From positions 3,648,001 to 3,712,000 of the forward strand of contig CM000154.2 of NCBI GenBank assembly GCA_000004695.1: a DNA stretch of 64,000 bases, written 5' to 3'. This stretch comes from Dictyostelium discoideum. Taxonomy: Eukaryota. How positions within the stretch are numbered: position 1 is the first letter of the stretch; the number at the start of each line of letters is the position of its first letter. The notes below the pieces were generated by a model. It did no database searches. It was given only the letters and a program-made list of their open reading frames with translations, and was not told where the DNA came from. Shown in pieces: positions 10,237-56,515 of this stretch. The position numbers and the translations under genes are program-made.

Positions 10237-10886
10237 TATAGAATTTTAATAAATAAAAAAAATAAAAAAATAAAAAAATAAAAAAAAATTATTTAATTCA
10301 ATATTTTATTTCAATTTCTAATTTTTTTTTGTTATTTTAACTTCTGGAAATTGACATTTTTGTTTTTTTTTTATTTTTTTTTTTTTGGAGATTTTGGACA
10401 TGGTGATTTTTTTTTTTTTTTGGAACAGTTTGGTTTGATTATATTGTATTTTTTATCCAAGTAAGATATGATTTGAGGTTTCCTTTTGATCACAAAAGGA
10501 GCATGGCTTGTTGAAGGCTTTTGGTAGTGCTTTGAGTTCGTATTGCCAGAGTAGGTTCAAATGTGTGGGATGTCATTGTCCATATGTTGTTGCTACTCAG
10601 CTTTTTAAAATATGTAAAATTGTAACTAAAGCAATGCAACGTAACGAAAGTAAATGTAACGAAAGTGGTCAATTGTAATGTTTAATAATTTATTTAGGAA
10701 TTTAAATTCTCTTAATATTTATAAATTTAAATATATTTTTATTTAATACTTTTTAAGCATATAATTTCTTTATTATTATTAATGTAGGGGATAATACACT
10801 CGGAAGACTGAAGTTGGTACTGAGAATCGAACTCACGATCTTAAATTAGCGAATCTGACAAACCATTAAAATTCATTGGTCCATAT

Positions 10887-10960
10887 GGTCGGATGGTGTA
10901 GTCGGTTATCACGGTTGCTTTACACGCAACAGGTCTCGAGTTCGATCCTCGGTCGGATCA
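10887..10960 (+). tRNA. tRNA-Val (anticodon UAC), copy 1
   Basis: Cloverleaf: acceptor GGTCGGA/TCGGATC (one G-G mismatch at 5:68, one G-U), D-arm GTGT-AGTCGGTTA-TCAC, anticodon stem GTTGC/GCAAC with loop TTTACAC (U33, anticodon TAC 10921-10923, A37). Variable AGGTC, T-arm TCGAG-TTCGATC-CTCGG, discriminator A. A T5 run follows at 10965-10969. An identical copy lies 1400 bp downstream. Confidence 0.75.
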
Positions 10961-10964
10961 TATC

Positions 10965-12049: not shown

Positions 12050-12486
12050 AAAGTAAATGTAACGAAAGTGGTAAATTGATCTGTAATTATTTATTTAGGA
12101 ATTTAAATTCTCTTGATATTAAAATTTAAATATATTTTTATTTAATACTTTTTTAGGCATATAATTTCTTTATTATTATTAATGTAAGGGATAATGCACC
12201 CAGAAGACTGAAGTGGGTACTGAGAATCGAACTTACGACCTTAAAGAAGCGATTCTGGCAAACCATTAAAATTCGATAGTTAATATGGTCGGATGGTGTA
12301 GTCGGTTATCACGGTTGCTTTACACGCAACAGGTCTCGAGTTCGATCCTCGGTCGGATCATATCTTTTTATTTAATTTTCTTTTTTTAAATCTATCTTAT
12401 TTTTGTTCTCTGAGAAATTTGCTATTGATTCATGCAAGTTTCACCTATTTTTATTTTGGTTTGAGCATCTATATATATATTTTTTT

Positions 12487-45575: not shown

Positions 45576-45648
45576 GCCCGTTTAGCAAAGTTGGAATTGC
45601 GGCAGCCTTCTAAGCTGCAGGTCGTGGGATCGAGACCCACAATGGGTG
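45576..45648 (+). tRNA. tRNA-Arg (anticodon UCU) with atypical T-loop; T5 terminator at 45653-45657 and external B box at 45682-45690
   Basis: GCCCGTT-TA-GCAA-AGTTGGAA-TTGC-G-GCAGC-CTTCTAA-GCTGC-AGGTC-GTGGG-ATCGAGA-CCCAC-AATGGGT-G. The anticodon stem and T-stem are perfect, U33 is present, and the anticodon is TCT (45609-45611). The acceptor stem has two G-U pairs. The T-loop reads ATCGAGA (A at position 54) where the human tRNA-Arg-TCT T-arm is GTGGGTTCGAGTCCCAC. Downstream aGGTTCGATGtc matches the dictyostelid external B box (GGTTCGAATCC-like). Confidence 0.6.
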
Positions 45649-45681
45649 AAACTTTTTAAAGGTGTACCAATAATGGTCGCA

Positions 45682-45690
45682 GGTTCGATG
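45682..45690 (+). promoter_or_regulatory. External B box (ex-B) downstream of tRNA-Arg
   Basis: GGTTCGATG lies 34 nt after the tRNA 3' end. A duplicated B-box-like element downstream of the gene body is a known feature of many Dictyostelium tRNA genes. Confidence 0.5.
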
Positions 45691-45764
45691 TCATATTAAA
45701 TCCAATTTATGTAAAGATCTTGGAAACGACCCTTATGGTCATCTCTTTATTGTAAAAAAAAAAA

Positions 45765-47080
45765 CCACAACAACACTACTTAAACCGCACCGCGATCAAG
45801 AGGATACAAGATACACGTGAAAAGTAATTCATCCTTTTCTATCCTTAATCTCGGTCAATTTTAACCAATCTTTCAAAAAAAATCACCAATCCACCACGAT
45901 CTACAGATCTAACTTACCAAATCGCCGATTCAAAGGAATCCCATCGAGATGAATTCCTACGCAGACGCGGCTAAAATGGCCAACCCCTCCACCCATATGG
46001 ACGAGGCATCAGAGAACTTCATTAAGGAATTCTCCACAAAAACAGCAGAGATAAAGGAGACCTACCCCAAATTATCAATAGGCCTCAAAGACATCTCCAA
46101 ATACTGCGAGACCATATTGAACATGACTGCTCTCTCAACCTACGAGAAAAACAACGGATTCTACCCAATTACACTCGAATTCCCCAAAATGGATCTCATG
46201 GGGTTAGAAGAAATGAGAAAAACACTCTCAAACTACGATATCCCAATCGACAAGATATACATAGGCAAAGGAACTAGAAAAACGATCCACCTGATGATTA
46301 AAAACGAACAATCTCTCCTAAATATCATTAGAGATAGAAGCAAATTGGGAACCTTCATCACCTCCAGTAGAGACTACCACGTCCTCACAGGAAGAGTAAG
46401 AATTCCAAGAGAAAAGGCAGGAATAGTGGACGCCCTCATCAAAACTGCCTTTGCAGAAGAAATACCCTATGCAATATACCATACTATATACTCCACCGAC
46501 CACCTCCTAGTATTCGGTCTAATAGAATGCAAAATAGGCGATCAAATGAAATCTGGCCAACACAATACAGAAATCGCCAACTTTACCATCAGAACGGCCA
46601 CCAAAACCTACTCCTCACAAAAGAAAAATAAGAAAGTAGAGTCAAACAACACGGAAGAACCATTAGAAGATGAGATGACAGATGATCCTCCCAACATCCA
46701 AAACAGGATAGCAATCAAATCCTCTCAACCAAAACCACAACAACAAACAAACAACNNNNNNNNNNNNNNNNNNNNNNNNNNNNNNNNNNNNNNNNNNNNN
46801 NNNNNNNNNNNNNNNNNNNNNNNNNNNNNNNNNNNNNNNNNNNNNNNNNNNNNNNCTTCAACGATCAAGCTAAGAAAAACAACAGCTAATTACTATTGTA
46901 TTCCAGAATCATCTCTCCCAAATATTATATCTTTTGATCAATTCATATGATTAAAATAACCCTTCAGCTTAAATGATAAGCCTTTAAATAAATATTAAAT
47001 AAAACTCGTATTAACACAGATGGACATATATCAATCTTGTTAATCTAATATTAAAAAAAAAAAAAAAAAAAAAAAATATT
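45765..47080 (+). mobile_element. TRE3-type (tRNA 3'-flank targeted) non-LTR retrotransposon, internally collapsed by assembly gap 46756-46855; ends in oligo(A)
   Basis: Base composition jumps from under 20% GC to about 40% at 45765, which is 117 bp downstream of tRNA-Arg and in the same orientation. ORF 45949..46755+ (MNSYADAAKMANPSTHMDEASENFIKEFSTKTAEIKETYPKLSIGLKDISKYCETILNMT...) has GC-rich, non-host codon usage (ATGGACGAGGCATCAGAGAACTTCATTAAGGAATTCTCC) and runs into the N-gap. After the gap a non-AT-rich tail ends in A23 at 47057-47079. The position and orientation relative to the tRNA fit the integration pattern of Dictyostelium TRE3 elements. Confidence 0.55.
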
Positions 47081-47902: not shown

Positions 47903-49426
47903 ATGAACAAATTAATTAAAATCATTGTAATTTTTACAATTATTGTAAATGTAATTAATGGTTTAGCATATCCAAAATATAATGCAGAAGAATTAATATT
48001 GGATGGTAGTGGTAGTTTCCCAGCACAATGGTTCACTCAAACATTAGATCATTTTAATTTTCAAAATAATCAAACATTTCAACAAAAATATTATGTAAAT
48101 GATCAATATTATAACTATAAAAATGGTGGACCAATCATTTTATACATTAATGGTGAAGGTCCAGTTAGTTCACCACCATATTCTTCTGATGATGGTGTTG
48201 TAATTTATGCTCAAGCAGTAAGTAGTAATTCTACTAATTTTAAAATATTTAAATATTAAAAATTATATATATATATATATTAAAAATTTATAAAAAAAAT
48301 AAAAAAAAAGTTAAATTGTATGATTGTTACATTAGAACATAGATTTTATGGTGAATCATCACCATTTTCAGAATTAACAATTGAAAATTTACAATATCTT
48401 AGTCATCAACAAGCATTGGAAGATTTAGCAACATTTGTTGTTGATTTTCAAAGTAAACTTGTTGGTGCAGGTCATATTGTTACAATTGGTGGATCATATA
48501 GTGGAGCATTATCAGCATGGTTCCGTATAAAGTATCCACATATTACTGTTGGTTCAATTGCATCATCAGGTGTTGTACATTCAATTTTAGATTTCACTGC
48601 ATTCGATGCCTATGTATCATATGCTGTTGGTCCAGAATGTACAAAAGCACTTCAAGCTGTAACTAGTGCTGCTGAAGATGAATATTTTGCTGGAGGTATT
48701 AGAGAACAACAAATGAAACAAATACTTCAAGCTGAATCATTGGTTGATATTGGTGATTTCTTTTATTGGTTAGCCGATTCGATGATGGAGGGTGACCAAT
48801 ACGGCTACATAGATGAATTATGTAGTCCATTGGTTGACGCTATCAATAGCGGTACCAGTGGTATCGATTTGATTACAGTCTACTCCAATTACACTATCAA
48901 CACTTGGGGTAAAGTTTTAGGTACTCCAGATGAATATTCAACAGCTTGGCAACAAAATGTCACCTATGACCCATCAAAGAGTGCCGATAGAGCTTGGTGG
49001 TATCAAACTTGTAGTTCATTAGGTTGGATGCAAGCTGCACCATCTGAAAATTCAATTAGATCTTCATTGGTAAATATGACCTATTTCCAAACTCATTGTC
49101 AACAATTATTCGGTCAAGCCATTTGGCCTCCAAATGTAAATGCTGTAAATACTCAATACGGTGGTGATCAATCAAATCCATTATTGAATGCAGCTGGTAC
49201 TAATATTTTATTCACCAATGGTCATGCTGATCCATGGAGTCAAGCTTCAATCGTAAATTCAAATTATCCAAATGTTGAACCCTCTGCAATGACCACTTGT
49301 CGTAAATGTGGTCATTGTGTAGATTTAAGAGGTTGTCCAGGTGGTTGTGATTTACCAAATAATTTAGATCAAGTTAGATCACTTTCATTAAAATCAATTG
49401 CACAATGGTTAAATTTAAATAATTAA
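47903..49426 (+). CDS. Serine peptidase family S28 (prolylcarboxypeptidase / DPP7-like), secreted; join(47903..48217,48311..49426)
   Basis: Signal peptide MNKLIKIIVIFTIIVNVINGLA. QWFTQTLDHFNF..QTFQQKYYVNDQYY..GGPIILYINGEG. Donor GTAAGT 48218 (phase 0), acceptor AAAAAG 48310. Exon 2 LNCMIVTLEHRFYGESSPF (S28 motif LVFAEHRYYGES), catalytic GGSYSGALSAWFRIKYPH, and C-terminal ..ILFTNGHADPWS. Confidence 0.85.
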
Positions 49427-49609
49427 AAATAAAATAAAATATAAAATAAAATAAAAATTAAACAAATAATAATAATTTTTGTAAATCTATTTTTTTTATT
49501 TTATTTTATTTTTTTTTATGTTTTTCTTTTAAAATTTCAATTTCTTTTCATTTAAATTTTTATCAAAAATCATTTTATTTTTTAATCTAGATTAAAAATA
49601 GGTGACAAA

Positions 49610-49640
<31 letters not shown>

Positions 49641-50079
49641 GAAAGGGGTGAGAAATTAATTTTTGATCAGAAAAAAAAAAAAATATAAAAGCCAATAAAA
49701 AATAATTTATTAATCAATAATCATATATCTATTGAATTTCAAACAATAAATGCATTTTATTCAAAATGATGGTATCAAATTAAGTTATTTTTCAATCAAA
49801 AAAAGGTTCTAATTAAAAAAACTTTTGGAAAGTCGCTATCACTAACTTTGTGCACAGATATTTCCATTCACAGTATATAATAATGTAGGTAAATTAATAA
49901 AAAAAAAAAAAAAATTAATAATAATTATAATATTATATAATTAAATAAAAAACAACCCCTCTAATATTTTTTTTTTTTTTTTTTTTCTTCTCTCAATTAG
50001 TACACTAAATTTTAATACCTATCAAAAACATGGATTTATATTTTTTTTTTTTTAATATTTTAAGATAAATCATTGTTTA

Positions 50080-50408
50080 TTAAATCCAATAAACTATATT
50101 ATTTTATAATTTATAAAAAAAAAGTCAAATATCTCCAAACTCGTCTCTATTGGTCTTTATCTTTCTTTAAAAACTTAAATCATTGTTTACAAATTGCAGT
50201 AAACAACATTTCGTTACAGTTAAGGGAAATAATATTCAAAAGAACAAACAAAAACAAAAACAACAACAGCAACAACAAATTCTTTCAAACTTGTCTCTCA
50301 TGTGCTGTCTCTTTTCTTTAAAAACTTAAATCACAGTTTACAAATTGCAGTAAACTATATTTCGTTACAATCAAAGGAAAAAATGGTGCAAAGAACAAAA
50401 ATAAAAAG

Positions 50409-50465
<57 letters not shown>

Positions 50466-50580
50466 TCTTTCAAACTTGTTTCTCGTTCGCTGTCTCTTTT
50501 CTTTAATAACTTAAACCATAGTTTACAAATTGCAGTAAACTACATTTCGTTATAATAAAATTAAAAAATAGTGGTAAGAA
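50080..50580 (+). repeat. Tandem ~150-bp satellite, about 3.3 units, each with a dyad-symmetric core GTTTACAAATTGCAGTAAAC and a variable (CAA)n/(AAC)n tract
   Basis: Units start near 50130, 50283 and 50466: CT[T/C]CAAAC[T/C][C/T]GT[C/T]TCT..TGTCTCTTTTCTTTAA[A/T]AACTTAAA[T/C]CA[T/C/A][T/A]GTTTACAAATTGCAGTAAAC[A/T]A[C/T]ATTTCGTTA[C/T]A... A partial unit lies at 50073-50130. GTTTAC/GTAAAC are reverse complements with an 8-nt spacer. The (CAA)17 tract is at 50410-50463. Confidence 0.7.
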
Positions 50581-50711
50581 ACAACAACAAAAAGAAGAAC
50601 AAAAAATTAATAAATTTAATCTTTTACGTCTCTTATGAGATTTAATTTAAACATATTATTTTCAATTTTTATTAATTTAAATTTATATTATCATTTTTAA
50701 ATTTCATTATT

Positions 50712-50759
<48 letters not shown>

Positions 50760-51101
50760 TTATTGATAATTGTTTATTTGATGTTGAAGGTGGAATTTTT
50801 AATTCAATTCTTTTGATATCTTCTGGTGGATTTCAAATGACAATAGCAGAAGTTTTTAAAAGAATTAGACCAAAAATACCACCCTTGATGTCTAATATAC
50901 AAAAAATGAATGTAAATAATTAAATTCCAGATCAAAAATATATATTTATACGTATATATGAATGATTACATTCATTTTTATGATATGATTTGCATATTTT
51001 TGGTGTTCTATTTATCTAAACTAATTCATAATAAAAACAATTAAAATTAAAAAAAAAATTGAAGGATAAATAATTAAATTTTAAAAATAAAATTTAAGAT
51101 T

Positions 51102-51136
<35 letters not shown>

Positions 51137-51323
51137 TCTGATTTGTTAATGTTTTTATAATAAAATAATGTAAATTTAAAAAAAAAAAACCAATCAATTT
51201 CAACCTTTTTTGAAAAAAATAAAATAAAATAAAAAAAATAAAAATTAAAGTATTATTTACAAATTTATTTAAGTATTAAGTATTTACAAATCAATTATTT
51301 ATTATTTTTTTTTTTTATAATTT

Positions 51324-51375
<52 letters not shown>

Positions 51376-52825
51376 ACATATTAAAGGATTAACAATAATT
51401 TTTGTTAATGTTGATATATCAGTTGTTGAGATTTGATTTTTATTGAAATCAGCAAAAGATGAACTTGTATTATTGTTTACATTTTTATCTATTATTTTAT
51501 TATTTAAATTAAAGTTTATTATGTTTTCTGTAATTTTGTAAATAATATTTAATAAAATATTAATATTTTTTTTATTTAAAAAAAAAAAAAAATTATTAAT
51601 TATTAAGTAAAAAAAAAAAATTAAACATACTTAATATCATTTTATTTTATTTTTAATTTAAATTATTATTTAATTATTATTTATTTATTTTTTTTTAAAA
51701 AATATTTATATATATTAATATATTTTTTTAAGTAAAAATATATATTATTTTTATTATTATTATTATAAATTATAAAAAATATTATATAAACAAATAAAAA
51801 TTCTTTTATTTAAATAGTAACAACATCAATTAAATTTATTTTTATTTTTATTTTTTTTTTAATTTTAAAAAAAAAATTAAAAATAATAATATTTACATAA
51901 ATAAAATACTAATAATAAAATTATTATTATTATTTTTATTAATATCATTATTATTATTATTATTATTACAATAAAAAATATCATCATCAACCTCAAAAAT
52001 TAAAAATTCACATTTCAAATATTTAAATCTTTACTACCCACATTCTCTAAAAATAAATCAAACAATCCTAGTTTAAAAAAAAAAATAAAAAAAAAAAAAA
52101 AAATTATATATATAAATAAAAATTTAAAAATTTAAAAAATTTAAATAACAAACAAGTAATACATAAATAATAATGGTATATTAAAAAACCATAAACCTAT
52201 ATTTAAAAAAAAAATTATCATTATAATTATTATTATCATAATAATATTGGTATTAAAATCTTATACACAAAAGTATTTTTTTTTTTCTTTTTTTATTTGT
52301 TTTTTTTTTTTTAAAATTTTAAAATAAATAAAAAATTAAAAAAAAAAACAATAAATAATCTTATATATAGAATAAGTTAAAATGTTACCCCATGTAAGTG
52401 TGTGGGTTATGTTTGTTGTTTTTTTTTTTGTTTTGCTAGATTTTTTACATTTATAGGGTGTATGAAAAATGAAATTAGATTTAAGTGGGTGTGTTTAAGT
52501 GGGGGTTAGAATTTTGGTTATTGTATTAGGATTCTTTTGGTTATAGAAGGTGGGGGAAGTGGTTAAACTTTAAATTCAACAATTTCTCTAAATTGAAATT
52601 GTTGTTGTTATATTTAGATTTTTTATTTTTAATTAAAACTTTTTTACATTTTGTAGTTGTTTTAATATTATTTACATTTATAGTTTTTTTACACCATAAT
52701 AAATATTAACTTGCTTTTCAATTTTAATAATCTTTATCTTAATTTAATTTTTGATATTCCCAATACCTTTTTTGGTTTAAATTTTTTTTTTTTAAAAAAT
52801 TAATAAATAAATAAAATAAAATAAA

Positions 52826-54135
52826 ATGGACAGTAATTTAATTAATTGGCTAAAAAAGTGTTCTGAATCTATATTAGATTCTCTGATAATAATTTCAAGG
52901 AATGAAATATTTATATCAAAAGAAAATCTTATTGATTTTTGCAAATCAAAATGGTAAAATATATATATTTATGTTTAAATAAAAAAATAAATAAATAAAT
53001 AAATAAATAATTTTAATATTTATTAACTATAATTATAAATTTTAAATAAAAAAAAAACAAAAATTTAAAGTTATAAAAAAATTGGATTAGGTGAAGATCA
53101 ATTTAGATTATTAAAAAATGAAATATCAATATCATTAGAAAATCATTTTAGAAATGAAAATGAATTAATATTATATAAATATGAACCCGTTAAAGAAATA
53201 AATTTAAAATTTGAAACAACAATTAGAGAATTGATTGAAAATAATATAAAATTAAATCAAATGAGGTTTATTAAAAATAATAATGAAAATAATGAAAATA
53301 ATAATAATAATAATAATGAAAATAATAATAATAATAATGAAGTTAGAATTGATTTAAATAAATATATTCAAAATGGTAATGATAATAATAATAAAAATAA
53401 TAATATTAAAGAAGATTCAGAAATTCAAAAACCAAATAATGAAATTTTAGTTATTGAATTAATACCAAGAAAATGTGATTCCTATTTTTATTATGAAATT
53501 CCATTAATAATTGCAGGTTGTATGACAGCAAAAGAATATTCAAATTTTATTAAAACAATTAATAGAGCCTATAGTGGATATTGGATATTATTTTTAATTT
53601 ATTCTTCGTATGCAATTTCAATTTTAGCCATTGTAATAACAATACCATATTACAAAGCATTTCCAATTTGGTTAATATTTTTTGGTGCAATGATTTTATT
53701 TTCAATATTTCTTTTAATTTATAGATTATTTTTAAGAGTAATTATTAAAAAAAAAGAATTTTTTATTTTTATTTCTATTTAGTTTTTATTTTATTTTATT
53801 TTTATTTTGTATATTAATCAATTTTTAATTTAAATAATAATAATAATANNNNNNNNNNNNNNNNNNNNNNNNNNNNNNNNNNNNNNNNNNNNNNNNNNNN
53901 NNNNNNNNNNNNNNNNNNNNNNNNNNNNNNNNNNNNNNNNNNNNNNNNATAGAAAATTATTGAAAAATCAGTACCACTTGAATTTCATATTGTTTATAAA
54001 AAGAAAAAGTTCCCTCAAACTAAAAATACAATGACAATGATAATTCACTATTTTTATAACTCTAAAAATACAAATGTTACAAATAATATTTACAATGAAG
54101 AATCTCAAATGAAAATTAATGAAATTGATGTTTAA
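52826..54135 (+). CDS. Small 2-TM membrane protein, paralog A of a 3-gene tandem family: join(52826..52953,53071..53737,~53953..54135); intron 2 contains assembly gap 53849-53948
   Basis: Exon 1 MDSNLINWLKKCSESILDSLIIISRNEIFISKENLIDFCKSK(W), donor TG|GTAAAA 52954 (phase 2). Acceptor TTTAAAG 53070. Exon 2 CYKKIGLGEDQFRLLKNE...ELIPRKCDSYFYYEIPLIIAGCMTAKEYSNFIKTINRAYSGYWILFLIYSSYAISILAIVITIPYYKAFPIWLIFFGAMILFSIFLLIYRLFLR, donor AGA|GTAATT 53738. Probable exon 3 ..KIIEKSVPLEFHIVYKKKKFPQTKNTMTMIIHYFYNSKNT..* is homologous to the terminal exons of paralogs B and C. Confidence 0.55.
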
Positions 54136-54309
54136 AAAAAATAAATAAAATGATTAAAAATATTTTTGAAATTTTCCTATTGTTTTTATTTATTACCTTA
54201 AAAAAAATATATTTAGAATTTTTACTAAAAAATTAAAAAATTAAGTAATTGTGTGTTTAGGGTGCAATTTAAAAAAAAAAAAAAAAAAATTAAAAAAAAT
54301 TTTATAACT

Positions 54310-55492
54310 ATGGAAAGTAACATTATAAATTGGATATATAACAGTAATGAATTTATATTGGATATTTTACTATCTTTATCAAAGAATGGTTTTTATATAT
54401 CAAAGTCAAGTTTAAAAAAATTAATTAATTCACCAAATAAAATGTAACTATATTAAATTAGAAAAAAATAAAAAAAAAAAATATCTTAATTTGTAATTTT
54501 ATTTTTTTAAATATTTATAATAATATTTATATTTTATAAAATATTATTATTTATTAGTTTACTAATAACAGTTTGTTAAATTTTTTTTTTGGTAAAATAC
54601 TATTTCTTGAAATGATTTACCTAAAATTTAAAAAAGATATAAATATAAATTAGAAATTGAAAATTATTATATTTTAAAAAAAGTATTTGAAAATTATTAT
54701 TTTAATAGTTCAGAAAAAAGTGAACAAATTACATTAATTAATTTAGATTTTATAAATGATAAAGAAAAAATTAATACCTGTAATGTAATAAATGTAATAA
54801 TAATTAACAATATATGTTTAAACCAAAGACATATAATTAGAGTAACAGAAGAAAGTAGAATTGATCCAAATGGGGTTAAATATGAAATAATTCCAAAAAA
54901 TTATAAAAGCTATTTCGATAAGAAATTACCATTAGAACTGTCACATTTAATATCAAGTAATCAATATATTAATTTTATAAAATCTATTAATTCTGCTTAT
55001 AATGGTCATTGGATTAAATTTTTAGTAATTTTTTTTTATATTATTGGTTTAATGGTTTATTTAATTTTATTAAAAAAAAACATTTTACCAAATCAATCTT
55101 GGATTTTTATTGTAGTTTTATCCTCAATTAGTTTTTCATTAATTATTTTTCATTTAATATATTCACATTTAATTAAGGTAATTTTATTTTTTTAAAAAAT
55201 AAAAAAAAAAAAAAAAAATTGAAAAAATTAAAAAAAAAAAAAAAGATATTAATCATTTTTTATTAAAATTAAAAAAAATAAGTATATTATAATTAAAAAA
55301 ATAATATATGAATTTAATAAAAAATTAATATTTCAAATGAACTATAGTGATTTTCATAAATTTATTGAATTTAAATTGATAAGGAAAAAAAAAAAATTCA
55401 TTCAAACAAATGATAAAATAACATTGGAATTTGTTTATTACCCAAGAAATTCAATTAATAATAATAATAATATAAATGAGTTTAATTTATAA
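54310..55492 (+). CDS. Small 2-TM membrane protein, paralog B: join(54310..54443,54709..55177,~55348..55492)
   Basis: Exon 1 MESNIINWIYNSNEFILDILLSLSKNGFYISKSSLKKLINSPNK, donor AT|GTAACT 54444 (phase 2). Acceptor TTTTAATAG 54708. Exon 2 ISEKSEQITL...GVKYEIIPKNYKSYFDKKLPLELSHLISSNQYINFIKSINSAYNGHWIKFLVIFFYIIGLMVYLILLKKNILPNQSWIFIVVLSSISFSLIIFHLIYSHLIK, donor AAG|GTAATT 55178 (phase 0). Terminal exon DFHKFIEFKLIRKKKKFIQTNDKITLEFVYYPRNSINNNNN..* after acceptor TATAG 55347. Its conserved frame is offset by 1 nt from the phase-0 donor, so the junction is unresolved. Confidence 0.5.
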
Positions 55493-55698
55493 TAATCATT
55501 AGTAAATAAAAATGATTAGTTTAAAATTTATAATATATCAGGTGTTTTTTTATTTTCTTTTTTTAAACCCTTTTTTTTTTTTTTTTTTATTTTTTTTTTT
55601 TTTTTCTATTTTACCACTTTTTTTTTTTACCACTTTTTTTTTTTTCCAAATTTCCTCAAGATAATTTTATAATATAATTTACGTTTTAATTATTTAAA

Positions 55699-56515
55699 AT
55701 GGAAAGTAACATAATTACTTGGTTAAATAATTGTTCTCAAGAATTAGTTGATTCTGTTTTAGCATTATCCAATAATAGATATTTTATTTCTCAAAAGAGT
55801 TTGGAAGATTTTACAATTGAGCAAATGTAAGAAAAAAAAAATAATAATTTAAATAATTAAAATAATTAAAAAAAAATTTTATAATATATATTAATTTTAT
55901 ATAAAATTTAGATTTAACTATTCAATAAGTGTAGAACAATATAATACAATAAAAAATGGAGTTGAAGCATTAGAAATTATAAATGATGATTTTGATCAAA
56001 GAGGAACCAAAGTTGAGATAATATTTCATTATGATGGATTAAATGGTGTAAATAAATGGTATAAAGAATCAATTAGAAAAATAATTTCAAATAATATTAG
56101 TTTAAATACAGATTATGTTATAATTAATAATACAATGATAAAAGAAATTGAACCAAAAAGTAGAAAAATGTATTTCAATCCAATTCCACCAATTGAAATT
56201 TCTCACTTGTTATCAGATGATAAATATCATGATTTTATATTTTCATTAAATAGATCATATGGTCCATATTGGTATGTCTGTTCGGCAATAATTTGCTTTG
56301 GTTTAGCAGTTTTATTTTTTTTCTCTTTTATATTTATTAGTAAAGCTGTTGGTTTTTCATTACTATTTGTTTTTGGTATTTCTAGTGTTTGTCTTGGTAT
56401 TTTCTCATTCATTTATGTTAAATCATTAAGAGTATGTATTTTAATAATTTTAAAAAAAATCATAATTTATTATCTATTCAAATATTAATTTAAATAATTT
56501 ATTTTTTGAAAAAAA

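Follow-up and report, generated by a model that had tools for sequence, protein, structure and literature searches.

A four-unit tandem repeat with a 20-bp dyad and variable CAA tracts in lineage-specific intergenic DNA of Dictyostelium discoideum

The stretch of Dictyostelium discoideum DNA analysed here, hereafter the window, is 64,000 nucleotides long and has approximately 20% G+C with long homopolymer runs. A tandem array lies in it downstream of an S28 peptidase gene, which is located on the + strand at 47903-48217 and 48311-49426 (stop at 49426). The gene product shares a 90%-identity protein cluster with XP_635876.2 of D. discoideum AX4, and is 98% identical to the cluster representative, which comes from D. 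cf. discoideum. On the other side of the array a small gene is encoded on the minus strand. Its last exon is found at approximately 51377-51560, with protein ends ...NQISTTDISTLTKIIVNPLICL and ...NTSSSFADFNKNQISTTDISTLTKIIVNPLICL before the stop. The small gene is 100% identical among D. discoideum strains and conserved in D. firmibasis. It is annotated, with 55 aa, in D. firmibasis only, and is uncalled in the D. discoideum-type assemblies examined. With the peptidase stop at 49426 (+) and the small gene stop at about 51377 (-), the array is placed between the 3' ends of two convergent genes.

The locus was compared in eight other assemblies, which were reached via the protein cluster of the S28 peptidase. 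In brief, loci L003 and L004 come from the AX4-type assembly, L005 and L007 from further D. discoideum strains, L001 from D. cf. discoideum, the closest sibling of the species, L006 and L008 from two assemblies of D. citrinum, L002 from D. firmibasis and L009 from D. dimigraforme. The AX4-type assembly equals the window base for base, homopolymer lengths excepted. The convergent intergenic region spans 1.95 kb in the window, approximately 0.53 kb in D. citrinum and approximately 0.23 kb in D. firmibasis. Locus L006 of D. citrinum aligns to the window at 49300-49530 and 51330-52995 only. Since this alignment stops at about 49530 and resumes at about 51330, the array belongs to DNA that is specific to the D. 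discoideum lineage. The lineage-specific DNA amounts to some 1.4-1.7 kb and has diffuse edges. The intergenic region had been called featureless by a first-pass annotation of the window; in addition to the array it contains a conserved block at 49700-49899, a T44 run, a palindrome at 50765-50910 and the 3' end of the minus-strand gene. The array, the block and the palindrome are confined to the loci of D. discoideum and D. cf. discoideum. The features of the array and its surrounding DNA are as follows.

49560-51330 (approximate), no strand: D. discoideum-lineage-specific DNA holding the array, no counterpart in D. citrinum
50066-50175, + strand: unit u0, 110 bp, decayed dyad at 50075-50094 (GTTTATTAAATCCAATAAAC), no CAA tract
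50176-50326, + strand: unit u1, 151 bp, exact dyad at 50185-50204, imperfect AAC/CAA-rich tract at 50247-50278
50327-50511, + strand: unit u2, 185 bp, exact dyad at 50336-50355, pure (CAA)18 tract
50411-50464, + strand: the (CAA)18 microsatellite in u2, length differing between strains
50512 to about 50640, + strand: unit u3, approximately 130 bp, exact dyad at 50521-50540, 3' part diverging into AT-rich DNA

The four units are arranged head-to-tail over 50066-50640, with start-to-start spacings of 110, 151 and 185 bp. The 20-mer GTTTACAAATTGCAGTAAAC is found on the + strand at 50185, 50336 and 50521, and no further exact copy exists in the 64 kb; by chance, 0.04 matches with up to three mismatches are expected in a window of this size. 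The pattern GTTTAC-N8-GTAAAC is likewise restricted to the array within the window. In TRF the repeat scores 551, at a period of 185 and 86% matches, and the units are 80-87% identical to each other; spacings, score and identity are those of head-to-tail copies beyond chance. With three exact dyads and this TRF score, the tandem units with a dyad core described in the first-pass annotation are real. Its three full units plus a partial one become four, however, counting u0, which lacks CAA, and u3, which decays at its 3' end. The half-sites GTTTAC and GTAAAC, said to be kept in each unit, are exact in u1-u3 and decayed in u0. The flanking motif CTTTCAAACTTGTCTC...TGTCTCTTTTCTTTAA does recur at the u1/u2 and u2/u3 junctions, though with a few substitutions, and the tract reported as (CAA)17 in the third unit is a pure (CAA)18.

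The array is present, position by position, in the AX4-type assembly, in L005 and L007 and in D. cf. discoideum. It is missing at the syntenic loci of D. citrinum (both assemblies), D. firmibasis and D. dimigraforme. The number of units does not vary, being four in all four genomes (window/AX4 type, L005, L007 and L001). The CAA tract had been described as expandable, and its length does differ among these genomes. Following the dyads of u0, u1, u2 and u3, the pure CAA repeats number 0, 3, 18 and 3 in the window, 0, 8, 6 and 2 in L005, 0, 6, 4 and 2 in L007, and 0, 32, 3 and 2 in D. cf. discoideum. The array is therefore polymorphic in length: because the tracts differ, the dyad spacings of the four genomes are 110/151/185, 111/147/153, 111/139/156 and 111/251/156.

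Between strains the array is 93-97% identical and the remainder of the intergenic region 83-100%; the array evolves at roughly the same rate as the neighbouring intergenic DNA. The u1/u2 junction of the window (50278-50394) is 90.6% identical to the u2/u3 junction of D. cf. discoideum, as compared to 86.4% to its positional counterpart, which suggests that some exchange between units may have taken place. Within the units, the dyad is the best conserved 20-nt segment, with a mean pairwise identity of 0.92 over 16 copies versus 0.64 overall (rank 1 of 119). This could hint at constraint, or at conversion centred on the dyad. It should be noted that the ranking weighs little, since a unit holds only about six independent segments of this size and the dyad was noticed for its conservation. 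The dyad is also not invariant. One arm is mutated in 3 of the 12 copies in u1-u3 (GTTTAT in u1 of L005 and L007, GTTTTC in u1 of L001). The dyad of u0 is altered or decayed in all four genomes; it is near-perfect in L005 and L007, with a GTTTAT arm in L007. Three of the four arm changes are C-to-T.

The block upstream of the array, 49700-49899 (200 bp), is 97-100% identical in the four D. discoideum-type genomes, and is missing from D. citrinum, D. firmibasis and D. dimigraforme. It has no fold signal and its ORFs comprise only 20-23 codons; two automatic gene models begin in it, at ATG 49750. The block is possibly a promoter, an RNA or a small gene missed by annotation. Downstream of the array, after the T44 run, the 146-nt palindrome at 50765-50910 folds with an MFE of -41.5 kcal/mol (z -5.5) on the + strand and -34.8 kcal/mol (z -4.7) on the minus strand. 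Two other D. discoideum strains have a weaker version and D. cf. discoideum has lost it; the palindrome has no entry in published, text-form miRNA lists for D. discoideum. The stretch 50700-51000 is the fastest-evolving part of the intergenic region, with 83-88% identity between strains. A candidate coding exon at 50759-50920 (VIDNCLFDVEGG..., 54 codons) is the palindrome read as an ORF; it was rejected, having no homologue and no Pfam match, and stops interrupt its frame in D. cf. discoideum.

The array does not have the properties of a coding repeat, which are a unit length divisible by three and a conserved frame. Since neither u1 (151 bp) nor u2 (185 bp) has such a length, open frames shift from one unit to the next, and the frame giving poly-N after u1 gives poly-T after u2. 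The single ATG is not kept in other units or strains. Searches with the translated units gave no homologue among 5.8 billion sequences or 1.84 billion representatives. In two of the five automatic annotations a gene model nevertheless runs across the array, and the three other assemblies have none. One model encodes 109 aa and extends over 49750-50923 of the window, the other encodes 123 aa and ends inside u3; both start from ATG 49750. Reconstruction of the 109-aa model was dropped as 88 GT-AG exon chains fit it, and for the same reason we regard the automatic models as weakly determined ab initio calls.

At the gathering threshold, Rfam matched only a tRNA elsewhere in the window and nothing in the array. 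At E values up to 10, the region 49400-51200 gave a chance mir-1468 match on the neighbouring palindrome and none on the array. When folded around the dyad, each unit gives a long, imperfect hairpin (z -1.75 to -3.1). Folding a unit had been proposed as a check on the RNA reading of the array, and the resulting MFE of -17 to -23 kcal/mol (136-141 nt, 37 C) is far weaker than the -56 to -88 kcal/mol of published D. discoideum miRNA precursors of 83-133 nt, which were computed at 22 C (PMC11014262 supplement). Nor do the units attain the published approximately -0.4 to -0.7 kcal/mol per nt of a stable extended hairpin. In a flank-only test, the 20-nt core was swapped for a neutral loop and the fold compared with dinucleotide shuffles. 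Without the core, the arms pair no better than the shuffles (z -0.5 to -1.35, + strand). The long hairpin is thus the core plus a compositional effect, the left flank of the dyad being pyrimidine-rich and the right flank purine-rich. The sole significant stem is the dyad itself, a 20-nt hairpin with an 8-nt loop.

Class I RNAs occur in all dictyostelids; they are 42-65 nt long, with a terminal 6-bp stem, an 11-nt motif and a CUGU end, and have a CCC-containing DUSE approximately 60 nt upstream (PMC7919456). The array is similar in that its 6-bp stem starts with G and that several similar copies lie close together. In contrast to a Class I RNA, however, the stem encloses 8 nt, the units have no CCC and so no such DUSE, no CUGU follows the 3' arm of the dyad, and the array is restricted to one species complex. 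None of the criteria checked on the units (length and stem, DUSE, CUGU end) is present. The small RNA gene family suggested in the first-pass annotation therefore finds no backing in Rfam matches, Class I features, arm pairing or folding energy. A full-text literature search with sequence strings from the units and the palindrome gave nothing relevant.

A further suggestion was that the array is a MITE-like repeat. In a wider form, the whole insert of approximately 1.3-1.7 kb would be a non-autonomous DNA transposon or foldback-type element, mobile or once mobile, in which the tandem units are internal or subterminal repeats and the dyads putative transposase-binding sites. This would agree with an insert that D. 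discoideum and D. cf. discoideum have and the much shorter D. citrinum region lacks, that also bears the long palindrome, and in which a weak inverted match, TTTTTGATCAG (49660) and CAGATCAAAAA (50929), brackets block, array and palindrome. However, the inverted match amounts to one 12-mer, with a mismatch, that D. cf. discoideum does not share, the insert has diffuse boundaries, and a target-site duplication is not callable in DNA as AT-rich as this. The terminal inverted repeats and target-site duplication that define a MITE were thus not found, there is no transposase remnant and no ORF with a homologue, and no second copy exists in the remaining 63 kb of the window, nor in approximately 150 kb of the eight related loci (about 210 kb in total). 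What the array shares with MITEs and foldback elements is a short, AT-rich, non-coding sequence that bears a palindrome and sits in inserted DNA specific to the lineage, but the units are tandem and not dispersed. We consider a mobile origin of the insert very unlikely. Exact 23-mers gave no match in metagenome and prokaryote genome collections, as expected of collections that are both without Dictyostelium. It is less credible by far that the array is a cluster of miRNA precursors, with each unit a long hairpin centred on the dyad. The imperfect hairpins and their z values would fit such precursors, but the reading is refuted on hairpin quality, by both the folding energy and the flank-only shuffle test, and the unit sequences are missing from the text-form supplements of published D. 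discoideum miRNA studies.

The conservation of the dyad leaves a residual hint of protein binding or of a short stem-loop. A dimeric DNA-binding protein could recognise the 20-bp dyads, with inverted half-sites of 6-8 bp and an 8-bp spacer, in line with the transcription-factor dyad array suggested in the first-pass annotation; the four phased sites would then make up a cis-regulatory element, or one of chromatin, that serves the neighbouring genes or a lineage-specific transcript. In addition to its rank among the 16 paralogous and orthologous copies, the dyad is exact in three units of the window while their flanks differ by 13-20%, and the core is retained in u0 despite decayed flanks. The u1 sequence TTGTTTAC/GTAAACAA also has what we take to be a resemblance to forkhead-type sites. 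We still think an array of binding sites unlikely. The array sits between two 3' ends with no conserved gene downstream of it, and arm mutations are found in u1-u3 as well as changes to u0 in every genome; the rank of the dyad is statistically weak, as noted above, and no known Dictyostelium factor with such a site was found. As D. citrinum and more distant relatives are without the array, a conserved regulatory role is impossible. Alternatively, the array could lie within a transcript of recent origin (a long non-coding RNA or a small gene born de novo) that runs through it from the 49700-49899 block, each unit giving either a + strand stem-loop (6-8 bp stem, 8-nt loop) or an exon coding for poly-N, poly-Q or poly-T. 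Such a transcript would explain why two assemblies have a gene beginning at ATG 49750 and why the block is as conserved as coding sequence. In three of the four arm changes, C-to-T would retain a G-U pair on the + strand, and the closing pair of u0 in the window is T-A, which looks like a compensated change. But AT-biased mutation gives C-to-T and G-to-A changes anyway, and explains them equally well. Furthermore, the two gene models are mutually inconsistent and absent from three assemblies, the 109-aa model is weakly determined, neither frames nor ATGs are kept between units or strains, protein homologues are lacking, and the modest fold signals of whole units are gone without the core. All in all, a young transcript appears rather unlikely. 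A combined form, to which we give only a slim chance, is that the lineage-specific 1.3-1.7 kb is a newborn transcription unit starting from the block; its body would be the tandem module, the selected part would be the 20-nt dyad or stem-loop, and the array, having originated in a single species complex, would be a multivalent platform, of RNA or DNA, to which a dimeric protein binds.

The array is probably a young, largely neutral, lineage-specific tandem duplication, that is, a low-copy minisatellite with slipping CAA microsatellites. A local tandem duplication only, the outcome that the first-pass annotation had set against its own proposals, fits best. The array has no demonstrable sequence-specific function, lies in extra DNA between two convergent 3' ends, and has no RNA, protein or transposon signature in the available data. 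The top conservation of the dyad, the constant four copies and the gene models in two of five annotations were counted against the neutral reading. We infer both the neutrality of the array and the way it was duplicated, as follows. A segment of approximately 110-150 bp would have been duplicated in place, by replication slippage or unequal exchange, to give four copies. The duplication would postdate the split of the D. discoideum lineage from D. citrinum and predate that from D. cf. discoideum. An A/C-rich stretch in every unit except u0 may then have seeded a CAA microsatellite, and the tracts presumably grew and shrank by slippage, independently in each unit and strain. The 20-bp dyad would merely be part of the segment that was duplicated.

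The array resembles minisatellites in its head-to-tail, 80-87% identical units, its non-coding location, the internal trinucleotide tract that varies unit length between strains, and the signs of exchange between units. It differs from them in having only four copies, equal in number in four genomes, and long units (110-185 bp) whose most conserved part is a 20-bp palindrome. Microsatellites of D. discoideum are exceptionally abundant and polymorphic (PMC9234386). The length change of (CAA)18 between strains is typical for this genome and resembles the AAC/CAA class described there (PMC9234386), but the tract lies inside a longer intergenic repeat unit, and the usual focus is on coding runs of poly-N or poly-Q.

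As it stands, the array is of little significance, a further tandem duplication whose trinucleotide tract is unstable, in a genome well known for such tracts. With CAA tracts of anywhere between 3 and 32 repeats in close relatives, it is a possible marker for strain typing. It is also a small, dated example of intergenic growth in D. discoideum, given the 1.95 kb here as compared to the approximately 0.53 and 0.23 kb of the related loci. Only if the dyads were bound or transcribed would the array exemplify a regulatory or RNA module of very recent origin.

Other features were observed in the window. The region 45576-47000 (1883-5062 of L004) contains a tRNA-Arg(TCT) gene and, approximately 300 bp downstream of it, retrotransposon ORFs, one of which runs across an N gap. 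The AX4-type assembly has a reverse-transcriptase gene at the equivalent of 45576-47000, and no retrotransposon is annotated at the same place in L005, L007 or L001. The arrangement has the appearance of a TRE-type (tRNA-targeted) insertion that only the laboratory lineage carries. Two tRNA-Val(TAC) genes, at 10886-10961 and 12286-12361, are located 1.4 kb apart on the same strand. The region 52826-55830 harbours tandem genes with similar first exons (MDSNLINWLKKCSESILDS..., MESNIINWIYNSNEFILDI..., MESNIITWLNNCSQELVDS...), which correspond to the small-TM family of the first-pass annotation. The 183-aa ORF of this family at 53231-53782 has no Pfam match, and the family is present at the syntenic place in D. 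firmibasis.
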